Source: Eubacteriales bacterium
GTDB lineage: Bacteria; Bacillota; Clostridia; Oscillospirales; CAG-272
Length of the DNA stretch: 64,000 nt
Direction: 5' to 3'
Assembly (NCBI GenBank): GCA_045635225.1
Contig: JAZRBV010000014.1
Coordinates: 3,544 to 67,543, forward strand
Shown: positions 3,244 to 43,141 of the stretch, in pieces
How the letters are laid out: each line of letters opens with the position of its first letter
Numbering within the stretch: the first letter of the stretch is position 1
Translations under genes and position numbers: made by a program
Notes under the pieces: model-generated
Databases searched by the model: none
The model's input: only the letters and a program-made list of their open reading frames with translations
Told to the model about the DNA's origin: nothing

Positions 3244-5097
3244 TTAAACCTTGAGGTTTACAGTTGATATTCCGGAGTAGTGAACGAAGCCGGAAAGGCT
3301 CTTGTGAAGTCTCTCCTCCTCAAGCTCCTCGATAGCGTCGATCTCGCCATTGAGATACGCCTTGATGAGCATTGCGGCGGTGTCACATCTTGCCGCAACT
3401 CCCGCATATCGTACGTCGAGATTCTGCCAGCCGAGTATCTTGTTATTTTTGAACCAGGTCTCCTTGTGCCATGCGTGGAGCGCCTCGGTCTTTTGCTTCA
3501 GCTCGGGCAGAAGCTGTGTCGCGATAGTGAGAAGTGCATCTCTGTCGCCTGCCTTATACGCCGGGACGAGCATTTCCGCGATCCTTGTCTTCGTTGCCAT
3601 GTAGTCAAAGGCGCGGTATGCGTATTCGTAGAGGTACGCCCATTTTGACTCCCTCGGGTAACCCTTATACTGATCGCGCGAGTACTCGTAGTGAGAGGAC
3701 ATCTTCTTACCAAAGAGATGAGTGTCGTAGAGACCCGCAAGAATATCCTGCCAGAAGAGAGGCTTGCCGAGGAATCGGTTCGCATAGTTGGGATAATCGT
3801 TAGAGTTTTCGAAATCGTTGTGATAGTAGCTCATCTTGTAGAAGAGATCCCACGAGCCGCCCGTCGATGCCTCAAAGCGCGCCTTTGCCTTCTCGTCGGT
3901 GAGCTCCTTATCGTAGCAAAGCTCGGCAAAATATGAGAGACCGAAAAGGTTTGCGAAGGTATCGCACTCTGCGTTATCGTTGCACCAGACGGTGAGCATC
4001 GCCTCGCGCACGCCGTTGTTTCTGCAAGCATCGAGCGAGAATCGGGACGTGCTCATCATATAGTTGTGCTCGGGGAAGTGACCGATCCAGCCCCAGTTGC
4101 CGCCTGCGAAGATCACGTTGCGACCGAGATCGTTATGCTTTTTCAGCATATAGTCGTCGCAGTGGTGATGCTCGCCGTAGTGCCAGAAGACGAGCTCGAC
4201 CTCCTTCGGTATCTTTGCCTTCGTCTCGTCGCGGATGACGGTCGCCTCTTCGTAGTAGGCGTTGTTCTTGGTCTCGACGCGGAAGTACATATCGCTCCAC
4301 ATCATGGGTATGAGTCCGTACTTATTCGTGATACCGATAAGTCGCTCCATATATTCGTTGAAGATCTCAAACGGAGGGACGTAGCCGTATTTGTTGAGGA
4401 ATTCTCCTCTGCCCATATCCCACGCCTCGTCCATACCGATATGTATTCTCTTCGAGCGGAAGCAGGAGGTGACTGTGGCAACGAGCTCGTCTACAAATGC
4501 AAATGTATCCTCGCTTCTCGCCATCATAACGCCGTTTGTGTCCTTGAGCTTCGACGCCTCCGGCCAGATGAGGTACTTTTCCATATGTCCGTAGAGCTCG
4601 AGACAGGGAATAGCCTCGATGCCGTATTCGTAGGCGTAGTCGTCGATGGCACAAAGCTCCTCCTTCGTGTATCTGCCACGCATATATCCGAAGTATTTTC
4701 TCGAATCGAGCTTCACGACGTCCTCGGTGTAGAGCATTATCATGCTGTATCCCATAACGGCGAGGTAGTCTATTACGCTCTTTACCGATTTGACGGTAGG
4801 CACGCCACAGCGCGAGGCATCGATCATCGCGGATATAGTTTTGAAATGGCCGTCCTCGGTGATGTCGAAGGATTTTTTCGTTTTTGCATTTTCAATCAGC
4901 ACAGCGAGCTCGCGCCATACGTGATACTTTTCTTTATAGTAGAGAGTTGCTTTTTTACCCTTGAGTGATACGCCGATACGATCGCCTTTAACCGCCGTGA
5001 CCTCAATTCCGTTCTCCGACACCTCGTAGCCGAGAATTTTCGAAAGACGTGCGATGCCGACGGAGAAGTCGTCGGTTACCTTAAAGTTCAGCCTCAT
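3244..5097 (-). CDS. Glycoside hydrolase family 20 (beta-N-acetylhexosaminidase-like)
   Basis: HIGMDEAW catalytic DE motif, MIDASR, LYTED, IPCLELYGH and MMWSDMY. Start at ATG 5097 with RBS ggagg. Confidence 0.88.
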   Translation of the reverse strand: MRLNFKVTDDFSVGIARLSKILGYEVSENGIEVTAVKGDRIGVSLKGKKATLYYKEKYHVWRELAVLIENAKTKKSFDITEDGHFKTISAMIDASRCGVPTVKSVKSVIDYLAVMGYSMIMLYTEDVVKLDSRKYFGYMRGRYTKEELCAIDDYAYEYGIEAIPCLELYGHMEKYLIWPEASKLKDTNGVMMARSEDTFAFVDELVATVTSCFRSKRIHIGMDEAWDMGRGEFLNKYGYVPPFEIFNEYMERLIGITNKYGLIPMMWSDMYFRVETKNNAYYEEATVIRDETKAKIPKEVELVFWHYGEHHHCDDYMLKKHNDLGRNVIFAGGNWGWIGHFPEHNYMMSTSRFSLDACRNNGVREAMLTVWCNDNAECDTFANLFGLSYFAELCYDKELTDEKAKARFEASTGGSWDLFYKMSYYHNDFENSNDYPNYANRFLGKPLFWQDILAGLYDTHLFGKKMSSHYEYSRDQYKGYPRESKWAYLYEYAYRAFDYMATKTRIAEMLVPAYKAGDRDALLTIATQLLPELKQKTEALHAWHKETWFKNNKILGWQNLDVRYAGVAARCDTAAMLIKAYLNGEIDAIEELEEERLHKSLSGFVHYSGISTVNLKV

Positions 5098-37791: not shown

Positions 37792-38309
37792 CCAGACAAC
37801 CCCTCACAAAAGTGGGTGGGAGCGCTGAGGTGCCCTAATAAAACCAAAGCCCCGGAGGATAAGCGTGATGTCCTAAACGGACAAATCACGCTAAGTTATG
37901 ATTGCCCCTGCGGGCAAGCTATGAGTTATGAAATGCTACGCATTGTTATGATTGGCTTCGCCAAGTTTAAAAATTGATAGGCAATCATATCATAACGTTC
38001 GCGTAGCAAACTCATAACGGCGAGCAAGGCGAGCCTCATAACTCTAAACTAAAACCAACAAAAAAGAGCAGACATACAAGAATTACAAAATCGGGGTTGT
38101 CTGGAGCCACCCGGGTATTCACCGATGGTGAATATACCCACAACCTACGCCTGAAGAGCGAGCTCTTCGATCTGCGGTTGGGGAATGCGAACCGGACTTC
38201 GCTTGCGCGAAGCTCGATGCGAAGCGAGAGCAGCAGCCCCAGACAACCCCTCACTAAAGTGTGTGGGAGCGCTGAGGTGCCCTAATAAAACCAAAGCCCC
38301 GGAGGATAA
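37792..38309. repeat. 71-bp direct repeat (37792-37862 and 38239-38309) downstream of tRNA-Thr
   Basis: ccagacaacccctcac...ccccggaggataa, 69 of 71 bp identical by hand alignment. Confidence 0.9.
37895..38042. repeat. Head-to-head mini-array: GTTATGA copies then TCATAAC copies with hairpin spacers
   Basis: GTTATGA at 37895, 37925 and 37945 (variant at 37918). TCATAAC at 37990, 38012 and 38036. Confidence 0.85.
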
Positions 38310-38323
38310 CCTCCGGGGTTGTC

Positions 38324-38399
38324 TGGAGCTGCTACCCGGATTCGGACCGGGGACCTCATCCTTACCAAGGATGTGCTCTACCAGCTGAGCCATAGCAGC
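38324..38399 (-). tRNA. tRNA-Thr(GGT)
   Basis: 76-nt cloverleaf GCTGCTATGGCTCAGCTGGTAGAGCACATCCTTGGTAAGGATGAGGTCCCCGGTCCGAATCCGGGTAGCAGCTCCA with encoded CCA. Confidence 0.96.
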
Positions 38400-38612
38400 A
38401 TTTACCACGAAGATGTTTCCCCGTGACGCAGTACATTATAGCAAAATTTTATGCGTTTGTCAATATGTTTTTTTGCTTTTTTTCTTAAATTTTTAACTCT
38501 TTTTGAAAAAAATCGAATAATAGGGAATTTTTTATTTAGTATTTTTTATTTGTTCATCAGTTGTTTATGATTTATTCATATTTATTTGCTACAATATATT
38601 AGTCGCAAATAC

Positions 38613-38880
38613 GGAGTATAACCGGTCGGAAGAATGCGAAAATAAAAACTTAATATTTGGACCATTAGCTCAGTTGGTTAGAGTTTTGTATCATAATCAA
38701 GCGTGAGCGAGTCTGTGCTCGCACAAGCGAGGCACGCGCAGATTGCTCCGTGAGCGCATCGTTTTGCGATGCAGGGTGCGAAGCGCCCATGCCCCGAGGC
38801 GGCTCACAAGGAGTATAACCGGTCGTATAAATGCGAAATTTAAAATTTAATATTTGGACCATTAGCTCAGTTGGTTAGAG
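38613..38880 (+). repeat. 71-bp duplication including the 5' 25 nt of tRNA-Ile2, separated by a 126-bp hairpin-rich insert
   Basis: Copies at 38613-38683 and 38810-38880, 65 of 71 bp identical. Confidence 0.9.
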
Positions 38881-38932
38881 CTACCGGCTCATAACCGGTC
38901 GGTCCTAGGTTCGAGTCCTAGATGGTCCACCA
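38856..38932 (+). tRNA. tRNA with CAT anticodon, most likely tRNA-Ile2 (lysidine type)
   Basis: 77-nt cloverleaf GGACCATTAGCTCAG...CTCATAA...GGTCCACCA. The GGACC acceptor stem resembles Firmicutes Ile2 rather than fMet. Elongator Met is not formally excluded. Confidence 0.9.
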
Positions 38933-38933
38933 A

Positions 38934-38970
38934 CAAAAAGAGGTCAGCCCTTGCGGTTGACCTCTTTTTG
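38934..38970 (+). terminator. tRNA terminator
   Basis: caaaaagaggtca / tgacctctttttg stem. Confidence 0.8.
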
Positions 38971-39174
38971 TTGTCGGAGCCGTCTCGATTGACTCAACCT
39001 AGTTTTCGCAGGCAAAGCCGAGAAAATAGGTTCGCATTCCCGCCGCAGAGCGCGTCGAGCTCGCTCGTAAGCGGCAAGGCGAGGAATATTGATGCTCGTC
39101 GTCAAAATACTAGAGGCTATCTCTAATATGTTGTAGCACTACAAGGGGCTGTAACGTATTTTCCCCGGTGAATA

Positions 39175-39228: not shown

Positions 39229-40296
39229 GTGGCAATGTTACTTTTATTGAGACCTAAGAACGGATCTTATGTGGGCCTTGCGAGCGAATATCAGACTAAT
39301 TTTTGTACCGAGGGTGCTAAAAGGCTGCGTGCTGATATGGACGCGGAGCAGTTAAAATTTATTTGGAACGACGTTGCTCCCGGACAAGACAGAGACGAGC
39401 ATTCTCACCCTGCGCCGGTATGCTTTGAGTGGCGGGACAGACCTTGTGAGATAGGTCACAATAACAGGAAAATATATACCTTTTTGGTTATATCCGAAAA
39501 TGCGGACATGTCTTCTCCCGAGGTTTATATCACTGCCGGCTCGTCGATGAAGGTTTACAATCTTAAAATTGCAACGAGGTATTACTGGTTCGTGCAGAAA
39601 AACGGACGGCGCAGTGAGGTTTATAGCTTCGTTACGGAGGATATTGCTCCTCGCTTTCTGCGCATAGTAGGCGTTTCAAACGTCCGTGATATGGGAGGCT
39701 ACAAGCTTATCGGCGGCGGTGTAATACGCCAGGGGCTGATGTACCGAGGAAGTGAATTTGAAAACAAGGTGCATTTATCCAAGGAGGGTGCAGAGGCTCT
39801 TGCCGCACTTAAAATAAAAACCGATCTGGATCTTCGAGGTGAGGCGAAAATATCGGTTGAGCATCCGACCTCGGAGCTACTCGGAATGAACAGGATATCT
39901 CTTGTCTCGGAGGCGTATGCAGGCTTGTTTGACGAAGGCGAGAGGGAAGAGCTTTATACCTTCTTTTCCACCTTTGCGAGCCCTGAAAATTATCCTATTT
40001 ATTACCACTGCCGAGGGGGCGCTGACAGGACGGGCTCATACGCCTTTATCCTTGGCGCACTTTACGGAATGACTCTTGAGGATCTGATCCTTGAATACGA
40101 GATCACTTCTATTTCTATCTGGGGCGGAAGAAACCGTAATCATCATCTCTTCAAGGAATTTCTTGACCGCTTCAACCGGCTTTCCGGCGAAGCTCTATCC
40201 GATAAAGCGAGAGCCTTCCTCCTCGAGTACGCCGGTCTTTCAACGGCGCAGATAGATAAAATCTATGAAATCGCCGTTTGTAAGGACGGAAAATAA
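39229..40296 (+). CDS. Tyrosine-protein phosphatase (PtpB/IphP-like) with N-terminal extension
   Basis: NVRDMGGY, DLDLR and the CX5R P-loop HCRGGADRTG. Confidence 0.88.
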   Translation: MAMLLLLRPKNGSYVGLASEYQTNFCTEGAKRLRADMDAEQLKFIWNDVAPGQDRDEHSHPAPVCFEWRDRPCEIGHNNRKIYTFLVISENADMSSPEVYITAGSSMKVYNLKIATRYYWFVQKNGRRSEVYSFVTEDIAPRFLRIVGVSNVRDMGGYKLIGGGVIRQGLMYRGSEFENKVHLSKEGAEALAALKIKTDLDLRGEAKISVEHPTSELLGMNRISLVSEAYAGLFDEGEREELYTFFSTFASPENYPIYYHCRGGADRTGSYAFILGALYGMTLEDLILEYEITSISIWGGRNRNHHLFKEFLDRFNRLSGEALSDKARAFLLEYAGLSTAQIDKIYEIAVCKDGK

Positions 40297-40634
40297 AATC
40301 GGAGAAGAGATATAAGTAAATGTTGTCGGTTCGACTTTCGTTAAAGATGGTCCACCAAAATAAAAAGACGAACCGTGGTTCGTCTTTTTATTTATCCAAG
40401 ACCGAAGGGGTTGGTATGGCATCAAGCGATAGCTTGTATTTCTCCGTCTTCCTTCGTTCTTGATTCCATACTCGCCTTTAGCGAGATTCTATGCCGCAAC
40501 GAGTTGCGGATTCCATTCACGGCTTTGCCGTGATTTGGTACGAAAGCGAGAAATATTGACGCTCGCCGTCAAAATCCTAGATGTGACCACTCGAACCTCG
40601 CAAGAGGATTGGTTTTCGTTTTGTTTTTTCTATG

Positions 40635-40685: not shown

Positions 40686-41537
40686 TTATTCTTCCTCGTA
40701 GTAATATGAATAGTCAATACCCTTCATAAACAATTCTCTATCGTTAATTTTGTCTGTTAAAGCATTCTGTATTAAAGAGAAAATTTCGTTTGCGCTAAAA
40801 GGACTTTTTTTCATCGCCTCAAGATATTTAGTTTTATCTATCCCGCTCCAATCAACGCATTTACCTAAATTCTTTTTCAAAATCAGATCAAGCCAAATTC
40901 TCGTAGCTCGTCCATTACCTTCCATAAAAGGATGCGCTACGTTCATTTCTACGTATTTTTGAACGATCTCTTCGAGAGTGCTTTCGGGCATTTTTTCAAT
41001 CGATTTCAAATTTTCTTCCAGATACAATGCGTTAGCAAATTTGAAACCGCCCTTGCTGATATTATGCGTTCTGATTTGACCGGCAAAATCGTAAAGGCCG
41101 CCGAAAATAAAGGAGTGAATTTGCTTTAGTCCCTTGACTGTTCCGACCTCAATGTTTTCAATCAATCCGCCCTCAAGCAAAGAATATGCCTTTTGCTTGC
41201 TTTTCTCGTCAATCGTTGTGCCCATTGTTTTCATCCAATGAGTAAATGCCGCCGTTTTTTTGCTCGGGATAACCATGATCAGTGTATTTACACCGTCATC
41301 GTCAATAACATCGGTTAAATACGATTTACCATCCTTAGCCATCAATTTCAGTTGTCCGCAAATTGAAGACAACTGAGGATTTCTGCTTTTTATGGTATTC
41401 CAATATTTTCTCGGAGATTTGCTACCCGTTAATGCTTCGGCAATATCTACAGCGCAAAACCACCACTTGGAGCTTTCATCATTCCATACCGCGCGCACGG
41501 GAATATTGTCAAAAAAACGAATAGAAGTTTTGATCAC
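40686..41537 (-). CDS. Fic/DOC family protein with an N-terminal BRO-like domain
   Basis: Canonical [12 protein letters not shown]. The N-terminal VRAVWN...[11 protein letters not shown]...YW is BRO-N-like. GTG start with RBS aaggagg. Confidence 0.88.
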
Positions 41538-41753
41538 TTTTGCCTCCTTATAGCAGTCATTTTGCCTAACTGAAATTATCATATATATTATATCACTTTT
41601 TCCCGTTTTTTGCAAGTCAAATGTGTAAAAATGCCAAAATTGCAACGTTGATTTTTAGGCGGATGAGTTGTCGTCTTGATATCGCGAAGCGACGCCACAT
41701 GTAAGGGGACAAGCACGCGCCTCGGTGATAAAACACATTTTGTGTCACGCATC

Positions 41754-41782
41754 TTGATTTTTAACGTTTAATGTGCTATAAT
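41754..41782 (+). promoter_or_regulatory. Sigma-A promoter TTGATT-N17-TATAAT
   Basis: Motifs at 41754-41759 and 41777-41782 with an extended -10. Confidence 0.6.
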
Positions 41783-41871
41783 TAGTTGAAAATAAAAATA
41801 TGTTAAATAAGGCACTTGTTTTTTAAAAAGCAAATGCTTTATTTTAAAAAGCAACATTTGTGAGGTTTGAA

Positions 41872-42822
41872 ATGGCTTGTAATTTATGTGGGGGAGAAAG
41901 TGGAAAGTACTTTCTTTGTTTTAAGTGCAACAAACTTAAAGATGAAGGCAAGGCATTAAAGTGCCCGGATTGTAGCAAATGGTTTTACGCGGATAAAGGT
42001 TGCTCTTGCAAATCAGCAACACCAAGACCAGACCCCAAAATCGTTAAAGCGCCGCCGGCGCAAAAAAACGAAAAGGCTGCCGGAGATGGTGTCTGTATAG
42101 TTTGTGCCAATAGCGCCCCGAATGGTCACCTTTGTCGTGATTGTTACTACGAAATGCGCGATTTCAAGGACAGTTTTGACAAAAATTCAAAGCCGTTTGA
42201 TATGAAAGATTATTATTTTAATCTTCGATCAAACATATATCGCATGAAAACGTTCGACTTTATCAAAAGCAACTGTAATAAGTTGATGGCTATTGCGAAT
42301 TTTGTTTTTGAATTATTCCATGATACGTCTTTGACCGATAGGGTAGTGAATGATATAAAGGATATTATTGAATCTAAAAAGCCAAAAGAAGAAGTAAAGA
42401 TTTCTGAAGAAGTTAAGCAAAAGGATAGCCACAAAGAAGAACTTAGAAGAACGTGCGACGGGCACTATGTTAAGAGTGATCCTGAAATTGTGGTTGACGA
42501 TATATTGTATGAAAATCGCATAGTTCATTGCTATGAGAAAAAGGTTCCTATCGATTCTGATGAACAAACTATAAAATGCGATTGGTTCATTCCGGTTACG
42601 GACAGTAGACATGGTATTTACATAGAATATTGGGGAATGAACACAAAAGAATATCTGCAAAATAAAGAACGCAAACGAAAGGCATACAAGGATCACGATA
42701 TACCTTTAATAGAAATCGAAAAAGACGACTACAAAGACCGTCAAGGATTGAGTGATAGAATAATATCTGAAATAAACAAACTCGCAAAAAAATATTACAA
42801 CGTAATAGATTATCTCAAATAA
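41872..42822 (+). CDS. Zinc-ribbon protein with a putative C-terminal PD-(D/E)xK-like nuclease domain
   Basis: Five CxxC motifs. C-terminal KS..E...D.LY...YEK...DWFI...IYIEYWG...K...Y pattern. AT-rich codon usage. Confidence 0.62.
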   Translation: MACNLCGGESGKYFLCFKCNKLKDEGKALKCPDCSKWFYADKGCSCKSATPRPDPKIVKAPPAQKNEKAAGDGVCIVCANSAPNGHLCRDCYYEMRDFKDSFDKNSKPFDMKDYYFNLRSNIYRMKTFDFIKSNCNKLMAIANFVFELFHDTSLTDRVVNDIKDIIESKKPKEEVKISEEVKQKDSHKEELRRTCDGHYVKSDPEIVVDDILYENRIVHCYEKKVPIDSDEQTIKCDWFIPVTDSRHGIYIEYWGMNTKEYLQNKERKRKAYKDHDIPLIEIEKDDYKDRQGLSDRIISEINKLAKKYYNVIDYLK

Positions 42823-43141
42823 AAGGTGCGAACGAGTAGTCATTATTTCAATTCAATTACCTAACTATTAGTAGCAGTTCAACTTTCGTGAATCTTGGTC
42901 CACCAAAATAAAAAGACGAACTTCAGTTCGTCTTTTTATTTATCCAAGACCGAAGGGGTTGGTATGGAATTGCGGCTCGTCCGCGTATGGCATCAAGCGA
43001 TAGCTTGTATTTCTCCGTCTCCCTTCGTTCTTGATTCCATACCGTCTGTGACGGATTCCATACGACACTTCGTGTCGATTCCATACCGCAACAAGTTGCG
43101 GATTCCATTCACGGCTCTGCCGTGATTTGGTACGGAGGGGT

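Follow-up and report, generated by a model that had tools for sequence, protein, structure and literature searches.

Repeats linked to tRNA genes were reportedly first described in Escherichia coli, at tyrT-tyrV (RtT RNA, rttR), by Egan and Landy in 1978, and the class of tRNA-linked repeats (TLRs) is said to have been defined by Rudd in 1999. Larger guests of the same genes, the genomic islands and prophages with tyrosine integrases, were reportedly assigned by Williams in 2002 to T-loop or anticodon-loop sublocations of tRNA and transfer-messenger RNA (tmRNA) genes. Here we describe a family of small units lying behind tRNA genes of an Eubacteriales bacterium (Oscillospirales, CAG-272). The family was found in a stretch of 64,000 nucleotides (the window; positions 3,544 to 67,543 of contig JAZRBV010000014.1, called C14 below, in an assembly of 3.26 Mb and 91 contigs), where one unit follows each gene of a divergent pair, tRNA-Thr(GGT) and a tRNA with the anticodon CAT. 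For comparison, E. coli K-12 has 22 TLRs at ten loci, with the hallmark of an 18-19 bp 3' end identical to that of the upstream tRNA or rRNA, and these are without known function except for three members in rRNA operons, which are produced when transcription runs past the terminator and are able to bind Hfq and CsrA (Stenum et al. 2021, PMC8144298).

At tyrT-tyrV of K-12, tRNA-Tyr is followed by an inverted copy of its T-arm (ggggaagg-atgagaa-gcttcg), AAGGTTCG, a GC-rich hairpin insert of ~65 nt and AATCCTTCCCCCACCACCA; the same layout is seen at proK, serX and lysV, where the arms match the unit's own tRNA and the terminator is included in the repeat. The Clostridial unit, read away from its tRNA, consists of a terminator, an inverted copy of the tRNA 3' part, one or two small hairpins, the T-stem 5' strand with TTCG, a module of ~68 nt, and a distal half that starts with AAT (plus one or two additional bases) and goes on with the T-stem 3' strand of the cognate tRNA and an acceptor strand eroded to a varying degree. 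Whole units measure 200-250 bp and contain no open reading frame (ORF). The reading that we favour, with slightly more belief than doubt, is that they belong to the TLR/RtT type known from E. coli but form a sequence family of their own, in which the arms are duplicated target DNA and the module is an exchangeable T-loop insert. The descriptive half of this reading is well supported: the arms have been copied from the gene next to them, at G57^A58 there is a bounded, structured module that can be exchanged, and the units multiply in tandem and are gained and lost between species. The insertion itself is a hypothesis.

The units and their neighbours in the window are made up as follows, in window positions, first on the Thr side and then on the CAT side.

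38324..38399, minus strand: intact tRNA-Thr(GGT) with encoded CCA (ARAGORN; Rfam tRNA, 67.4 bits).
38297..38318, minus strand: intrinsic terminator hairpin directly after tRNA-Thr (terminator scan; 9 pairs, then a T run).
38230..38250, minus strand: inverted copy of the tRNA-Thr 3' end, comprising the acceptor 3' strand, CCA and the first trailer bases (38232-38250 and 38315-38333 are 95% complementary over 19 nt).
38197..38228, minus strand: two small hairpins (ctcg..cgag; cttcgc-GCAA-gcgaag) leading from the inverted copy to the split T-arm (sequence and minimum free energy fold).
38188..38196, minus strand: direct copy of the T-stem 5' strand and TTCG, the left half of the duplicated T-arm (CCGGT.CG in common with tRNA-Thr); the minimum free energy fold joins it to 38109-38113, which gives the closing helix.
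38120..38187, minus strand: insert module of 68 nt with helix P1, hairpin P2 with a G(CUCG)C loop and hairpin P3, TTCACC..GGTGAA (nhmmer E=3e-20; covariance model R1, 84.8 bits; fold z=-3.37; helices also supported by covariation).
38092..38119, minus strand: direct copy of the T-loop 3' part, T-stem 3' strand, acceptor, CCA and 10 nt of trailer (AATACCCGGGTG-GCTCCAGACAACCCCG); it aligns with tRNA positions 51-76 and retains CCGGGT..GCTCCA and the 10 nt of trailer.
37792..37862, minus strand: second, partial tandem unit, with the terminator right arm, the spacer and the beginning of the inverted copy (97% identity with 38239-38309 over 71 nt).
38856..38932, plus strand: tRNA with anticodon CAT (Met by ARAGORN; Rfam), plausibly the lysidine tRNA-Ile2.
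38926..38978, plus strand: terminator whose stem extends into the tRNA(CAT) 3' end (TCCACCAAC.. / ..GTTGTCGGA; inverted repeat of 24 nt, 88%, arms 38926-38949 and 38955-38978).
38987..39002, plus strand: inverted copy of the tRNA(CAT) T-arm (gattgactcaacctag; local alignment, inverted, tRNA positions 50-62).
38998..39034, plus strand: hairpin, then direct copy of the T-stem 5' strand and TTCG (TAGGTTCG; 8-nt exact match, tRNA positions 51-58).
39035..39103, plus strand: insert module of 69 nt, degraded, with P3 altered (nhmmer E=5e-17; R1, 78.1 bits; z=+0.26); the core as a whole spans 39025-39103.
39104..39121, plus strand: eroded direct copy of the T-stem 3' strand and acceptor (AAAATACTAGAGG versus GAGTCCTAGATGG; sequence reading).
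40543..40590, plus strand: truncated unit with the 3' part of the insert (end of P1, and P3), followed by TCCTAGATGTGACCAC (40543-40581 is 87% identical to 39076-39114).

Every repeat named in the original prediction, which had been made from the letters of the window, was recovered at its coordinates: the inverted copy, the core, the 16-nt direct copy and the sister fragment, i.e. the truncated unit at 40543..40590. The direct copy is an exact repeat of CGGGGTTGTCTGGAGC at 38092-38107 and 38314-38329, the cores of the two sides (38151-38193 and 39029-39071) are 72% identical over 43 nt, and TCCTAGATGTGACCAC at the sister fragment is a better-kept copy of the tRNA(CAT) 3' end than the one at 39104..39121. 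The Thr locus holds ~1.3 units in the window; an unrelated hairpin-array element at 37863-38050 separates the partial second unit from the first and splits the second terminator. The GGTTCG of the core, which had been suggested to mimic a T-loop, is the real 5' half of a duplicated T-arm rather than a mimic, and the 3' half (AAT.CC, the T-stem 3' strand and the acceptor) resumes 68 nt after GGTTCG.

A core that stays the same while its arms match the neighbouring tRNA, as had been proposed from the two units of the window, is found across the 13 tRNA-linked copies and the tmRNA-linked copy of this genome, and also at more than 100 loci of other gut Clostridia metagenome-assembled genomes (MAGs). 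When the arms were scored against the 3' ends of 47 tRNAs and the tmRNA, the adjacent gene was the best of the 48 for 9 of the 13 copies and took places two to five for the other four. Unusual T-arms are copied faithfully, such as AGTTCG at tRNA-Glu(CTC) and GGTCCG at tRNA-Gln. The flank logos of 152 copies read GGGTTCG before the module and (CG)AAWWTCCC after it; the two flanks pair with each other to give the T-stem of the cognate tRNA and covary heavily, and the point at which the T-loop is split is G57^A58.

The inverted copy comprises the acceptor 3' strand and CCA, often with the whole T-arm, and lengthens the terminator stem; terminator and inverted copy often recur after the distal half, opening a further tandem unit. 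Of 70 units, 57% have an inverted copy whose complementarity to the acceptor and CCA of the real tRNA exceeds the 95th percentile of the null; for complementarity to the unit's own distal acceptor copy the share is 5.7%. The distal acceptor is therefore a relic in decay, and units do not as a rule close into a cloverleaf like that of a tRNA. Most copies keep 8-12 nt of the tRNA end, and fresh copies keep 16-22 nt including CCA (L055, L085, L145). In fresh units, a new terminator stands after the tRNA and a different one, probably the native one, after the distal copy. A tRNA-like four-way junction, formed by the inverted copy and the unit's own distal acceptor, was considered as a model and rejected, the pairing being at chance level; the Thr unit of the window, owing to its well-kept distal copy, is an exception.

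The genome scan with an nhmmer profile identified 20 full copies of the core and one partial copy in 3.26 Mb. As had been anticipated, the core is mostly linked to tRNA or tmRNA genes: 14 of the 21 copies lie 79-445 nt downstream of such a gene on the same strand, where ~0.07 copies would be expected by chance within 450 nt downstream of 47 tRNA genes (arithmetic from the genome fraction). The hosts of the 13 tRNA-linked copies, some of them in tandem, are Thr, CAT, Pro (two), Ser (three), Arg, Glu (two) and Gln, and the fourteenth copy is that of the tmRNA. An exact-pattern scan of 185,579 species genomes gave at least 119 loci, and the matches listed come without exception from MAGs of uncultured gut bacteria of animals and humans, assigned to Clostridia, Eubacteriales or Oscillospiraceae; of the 73 assessable cores at the first 80 of these loci, 54 have a tRNA or tmRNA gene on the same strand no more than 700 nt away (median 90 nt), and these genes are of 17 kinds. 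The R1 covariance model found 1-16 copies in 16 of 18 congeneric species genomes, none in the other two, and none in 12 genomes from other families of the same order. Judging from the matches listed, the family seems to be confined to uncultured gut Clostridia (Oscillospirales-like MAGs). All of the 167 copies collected by nhmmer are short and gene-less, and none is joined to an ORF; a search of the core pattern against the 2.9 million viral contigs of IMG/VR gave no match.

Some copies occupy other positions. A tmRNA gene (Rfam, 160.5 bits) at C73:14650-15450 (L010) is followed by a unit with arms copied from the tmRNA 3' end, and tmRNA-linked units occur in at least four further MAGs. Antisense copies of the module are found at the 5' end of tRNA-Ser, with the target CCGCTTCG^ATA (C79:65829-66000; L062, L065, L126); they sit between the tRNA and its presumed promoter, and here too the split copy is accompanied by an intact one and by a short inverted piece. 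An orphan unit with no tRNA nearby lies at C84:23595, and orphan units with similar arms are present at the MAG loci L057 and L121; directly upstream of the former, at C84:19296-23700, are three consecutive ORFs of 547, 267 and 546 aa, by eye putative large serine recombinases. Finally, a weak match to the Rfam Gut-1 RNA (C38:46443-46514, plus strand; 33 bits, with a gathering threshold of 50), on the opposite strand between two tandem tRNA-Arg units, is probably due to chance.

The consensus fold obtained by RNAalifold from 18 copies consists of the T-stem as closing helix, the long helix P1, hairpin P2 and hairpin P3 (TTCRYC..GRYGAA), and the loop region of P2 is invariant AGCUYGCU, that is, a G(CUYG)C tetraloop. 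Compensatory changes were observed at 13 of the 20 pairs. In 117 further copies, whose alignment was fitted to the structure model and thus leans towards structure, 93.4% of the cells are paired versus 75.8% after shuffling, double changes number 392 versus 122, and the covariation score is 0.446 versus 0.144 in shuffles and 0.03-0.09 with the partners slid. The Thr copy adopts the model shape unaided, and the CAT copy no longer folds well. Mismatches within the helices are A-C in 36 cells versus G-T in 15, and 22 of the 36 A-C cells come from a single pair at the inner end of P1. The ends of the module, CATWCC.. and ..GGYG, are not inverted repeats, and P2 and P3 are unrelated hairpins. A kink-turn in the internal loop was also considered; the sequence does not fit it.

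The module can be told apart from its target in three homologous spare 3' halves of tRNA-Ser(TGA) of this genome, of which one is empty, one carries this module and one carries another. On C28 the T-loop is intact (GGGGGTTCG joined to AATCCCTCTTCC); on C72 the module occupies the same point (GGGGGTTCG, then CAT...GACG, then AATCCCCCTCTTCC); and on C11 a different, longer module is found at the same position. Similar variation is seen between genomes. The tRNA-Thr(GGT) site holds this family in G000, G003, G007 and G010, is empty in G012 and G004, and has unrelated small inserts in G001 and G011, one of which is 80 nt long and has on either side a perfect repeat of 75 nt that extends from the T-stem through the terminator. 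At the tRNA(CAT) site, G009 and G004 have no insert, and G008 has one of a different family. When 94 modules were labelled by the upstream tRNA and placed on a tree, 52 label changes were counted, the minimum being 18 and the value for shuffled labels 71 +/- 2; in addition, modules 94% identical to each other stand behind tRNA-Gln (L132) and tRNA-Pro (L145) in different MAGs with unrelated flanks. Since the spare tRNA-Ser sites are found both empty and filled, and the same geometry recurs at CCGCTTCG^ATA, the module behaves as a discrete insert with the target TTCG^A. The idea of an element that copies or adapts to its target is not upheld, because the distal acceptor copy decays and the module is found in spare tRNA-Ser copies that exist in empty and filled form; the arms behave as duplicated target DNA, with no sign of an active copying step.

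Several other insert families were noticed at tRNA genes. A second, longer one (CATACCGCAGGCAC..GAGTATTCGCGGTATC..) stands after GGTTCG in spare tRNA-Ser copies at C2:170-330 and C11:~1600-1767; also noted were a 'CATACCGCAGG' type, the G001 and G011 types, and family B, located in the anticodon loop. In the window, family B is a GC-rich insert of 126 nt at 38684-38809, between two copies of a 71-nt repeat (region 38613-38880) composed of ATAACCGGTCG (the 3' part of the anticodon arm), the tRNA(CAT) leader and tRNA nucleotides 1-25. In the relatives G003 and G007 it interrupts a spare copy of tRNA(CAT) in the anticodon loop, at CATAA^ATAACC, and it is multi-copy in congeners, especially G011. 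Family B looks like an anticodon-loop counterpart of the T-loop module.

Palindromic hairpin arrays, in which short variable GC hairpins alternate with a constant word of 7-10 nt, first forward and then mirrored, adjoin tRNA-linked units at 37863-38050 and 40395-40545 of the window and at L046 (G008), L044 (G004), L055, L085 and L136. The word is GTTATGA/TCATAAC in the first array and GATTCCAT in the second; elsewhere it is AATGATG, GTATATCATC, GTGAAATA or GTATGTAAT. Also in the window, two copies of GGTTCRACTTTCGT..A..GGTCCACCA, a degenerate T-arm with the tRNA(CAT) 3' end, lie at 40325-40400 and ~42870-42945 with the same terminator and trailer. They bracket the genes at 40686-42822, and the first of them follows a phosphatase-like ORF at 39229-40296, an arrangement resembling the accretion of cassettes.

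Under the reading that we favour, a unit would be a redundant partial copy of the 3' part of the neighbouring tRNA with its T-loop split by a discrete module, and the duplicated arms (T-stem 5' strand with TTCG; AAT with T-stem 3' strand and acceptor; the inverted copy) would belong to the target and not to the module. Spare copies of tRNA 3' ends may arise by duplication at these ends, of the integration type or in tandem; within the window, tRNA(CAT) 3' ends have accreted serially at 40325-40357, 40543-40590 and ~42870. The module would evolve separately and land at TTCG^A sites, mostly T-loops, and it would persist only where the interrupted copy is dispensable, because insertion into a working gene would destroy that gene. 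The units would then multiply locally as tandem repeats. By analogy with the E. coli TLR RNAs, a unit, with its core, is probably transcribed by read-through of the tRNA terminator, and its RNA is predicted to fold as a three-way junction closed by the copied T-stem. Such a unit would be selfish or at most accessory, and the tRNA would not need it.

A number of observations do not sit easily with this account. No insertion enzyme, no terminal inverted repeats and no linked gene were found, nor is there a clear target-site duplication beyond an ambiguous CG. The G-U wobble is very rare in the helices of the module (15 of ~1,900 cells), which is unusual for RNA; a hairpin acting at the level of DNA fits this rarity just as well. 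Similar modules at different tRNAs could stem from gene conversion between units instead of transposition, and an exact look-up with two flanking proteins found no pair of filled and empty sites within one species. Finally, in the freshest units (L055, L085, L136, L145) the left T-stem 5' strand already matches the new tRNA, and therefore either a pre-existing duplicate or a one-step mechanism is required. A bolder form of the same account would place the TLR/RtT-type units in a single, widely distributed class of elements without genes, which home in on the conserved T-loop (TTCG^A) of tRNA genes and of the tmRNA gene, possibly inserting on folded single-stranded DNA or RNA, and leave an intact gene beside an interrupted copy; the E. 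coli TLRs would then be an independent family of this class, and neither sRNA genes (genes of small RNAs) nor integrase scars. We regard this generalisation as unlikely.

Among the alternatives, a functional sRNA similar to RtT survives best. It would be made from the tRNA transcript, with the copied T-stem and acceptor as processing handles and a module that binds a protein or an RNA, for instance as a regulator or a sponge. Strong covariation and an invariant CUYG-type tetraloop closed by G-C are what such a molecule would be expected to show, as are a Thr copy that folds far better than its shuffles and a constant position directly behind tRNA genes in the same orientation. Moreover, the rrA/B/F TLRs of E. 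coli are read through, processed and bound by Hfq and CsrA, whereas the 19 TLRs of tRNA operons are without known function (PMC8144298). The turnover of the Clostridial units is nevertheless high, with 0-16 copies among congeners and orthologous sites that are empty or filled with other inserts; the acceptor copy, the would-be handle, has decayed to chance level in most units; a terminator stands between tRNA and unit; the CAT-side copy in the window has lost its fold; and wobble pairs are almost absent. On balance this explanation falls on the unlikely side.

We consider it decidedly unlikely that the units are integrase scars, or mini-elements reduced to a phage-type attachment site (attP) and moved in trans. 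Insertion in the T-loop would have rebuilt the 3' end of the gene and displaced the old end, and the core would be an arm of the recombination site. The direct repeats do start in the T-loop and reach or pass the tRNA end, which is the signature of the attachment sites attL and attR, and the succession of a new and a probably native terminator in fresh units is as expected from displacement. Gene-bearing cassettes lie between copies of the tRNA(CAT) 3' end in the same window, spare tRNA-Ser halves beginning at the anticodon loop resemble classic att relics, and the genome has 15 matches to the tyrosine-recombinase domain PF00589, one of them ~3 kb from tRNA-Ser and units on C2. However, the module lies within the duplicated T-arm (TTCG / AAT), whereas a crossover would leave an intact T-loop, and protein-binding arms do not retain hairpins through compensatory changes. 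Most units have no integrase in or next to them, with none of the 15 PF00589 matches on contig C14; the viral contigs lack the core pattern; and a single module family is found at 17 or more different tRNA and tmRNA targets.

It is highly improbable that the units result from replication template switching at T-arm or terminator hairpins, i.e. from a direct-inverted-direct triplication involving no element, with a core that is filler spread by gene conversion: the intact-inverted-direct order does resemble a fold-back triplication, with a palindrome centred on the terminator, and tandem arrays with near-perfect repeats are common, but this explanation fails to account for the conserved 68-nt module, its covarying helices, the fixed G57^A58 boundaries, the more than 150 copies and the empty and filled homologous copies, and the inverted copy is not of the same age as the distal one, the scores of the two being uncorrelated (Spearman -0.18) and the inverted copy being already poorly matched in the fresh units L055, L136 and L145. 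Two further candidates were dropped. The likeness to rolling-circle elements of the IS91/Helitron kind is limited to a loose resemblance to GTTC/CTTG motifs, and in the case of a retroviral-type primer-binding site the inverted copy runs into the trailer, thus mirroring the gene and not the mature tRNA.

The nature of the TLRs is of interest because, three rRNA-operon copies aside, their function and origin have gone unexplained in E. coli since 1978. The Clostridial family offers what the 22 near-identical E. coli copies cannot, namely more than 150 diverged copies with clear covariation, and in addition empty and filled sites in one genome, switching between tRNAs and a tmRNA host. It makes plain how a unit is built, with a discrete module that divides the duplicated T-arm at G57^A58, and turns the question of what a TLR is into testable alternatives: a mobile module, a processed RNA or a recombination scar. 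There is a practical side as well. The units break assemblies at tRNA loci, and they mimic att sites; therefore island-finding tools may miscall them.

Introns interrupt tRNA genes in the anticodon loop (group I introns of bacteria) or at bulge-helix-bulge motifs (archaea). The interrupted copies described here have neither the 5' acceptor strand nor the D-arm, and there was no match to an Rfam intron family in the window region and 15 loci. Miniature inverted-repeat transposable elements (MITEs) and the palindrome-associated elements derived from IS200/IS605 are non-autonomous, structured insertion sequences. Like them, the Clostridial modules are small, gene-less, hairpin-rich, multi-copy and variable between relatives, with a fixed short target (here TTCG^A) and no clear target duplication. 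Unlike them, they have no terminal inverted repeats and almost always lie within a duplicate of a tRNA segment beside the intact gene; no related autonomous copy or transposase turned up among the copies collected by nhmmer, no search dedicated to transposases having been made.

With tRNA-integrated islands the units share the loop-started duplication of the tRNA 3' part, the rebuilt gene end with the old end displaced downstream, the tmRNA as a target and the serial accretion of 3' ends. They differ from islands in their size of 200-250 bp, in having no integrase or other gene, and in the module, which interrupts the duplicated T-loop rather than lying outside it and keeps its hairpins by compensatory change. 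As at attL and attR, a flanking direct repeat is present; the insert has no recombinase, and the loop is not intact at both junctions because the distal T-loop is interrupted by the module.

The closest likeness is to the E. coli TLRs. The original prediction knew of no described family with this design, which is in fact that of the TLRs (RtT RNA, RF00391). Both kinds of unit lie directly behind a tRNA gene in the same orientation, often in tandem, and repeat at their 3' end the 3' end of the upstream tRNA; at the E. coli loci, a terminator, an inverted T-arm, the T-stem 5' strand with TTCG, a GC-rich hairpin insert of 60-70 nt and (T)AATCC with the T-stem 3' strand, acceptor and CCA follow one another, often with the terminator again, a layout like that of the Clostridial units. 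The likeness to a described family thus extends to design and not to sequence or covariance model. The RF00391 model has a gathering threshold of 45 bits and exceeds it 13 times in K-12, behind five different tRNA clusters (tyrT/V, proK, lysT-valT, valU-lysV and serX). At E<=1 it matched nothing in the Clostridial genome as a whole, nor did it match anything at E<=5 when run on the window region and 15 loci. At the gathering thresholds and at E<=5, Rfam as a whole recognised only tRNA and tmRNA in the window region and these loci, Gut-1 being below threshold. Conversely, R1 run with filters off on the E. coli TLR loci gave one match of 14.9 bits, mostly in the T-arm flanks, and homology is not supported. 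In the literature searched, no description of TLR-like elements outside enterobacteria was found.

The two families also differ in the fold of the insert, which has three hairpins in E. coli and here one long helix with the CUYG hairpin and one further hairpin, and in their hosts, Proteobacteria there and Bacillota here, where the tmRNA serves as a host too. As far as the sequences can tell, the Clostridial units form a new sequence family, outside RF00391, whose design is known from the TLR/RtT elements of E. coli. Their location behind tRNA genes is that of the TLRs, and so is their identity with the upstream 3' end, although it is shorter: the E. coli repeats keep a perfect tRNA end of 18-19 nt, the Clostridial copies mostly 8-12 nt.

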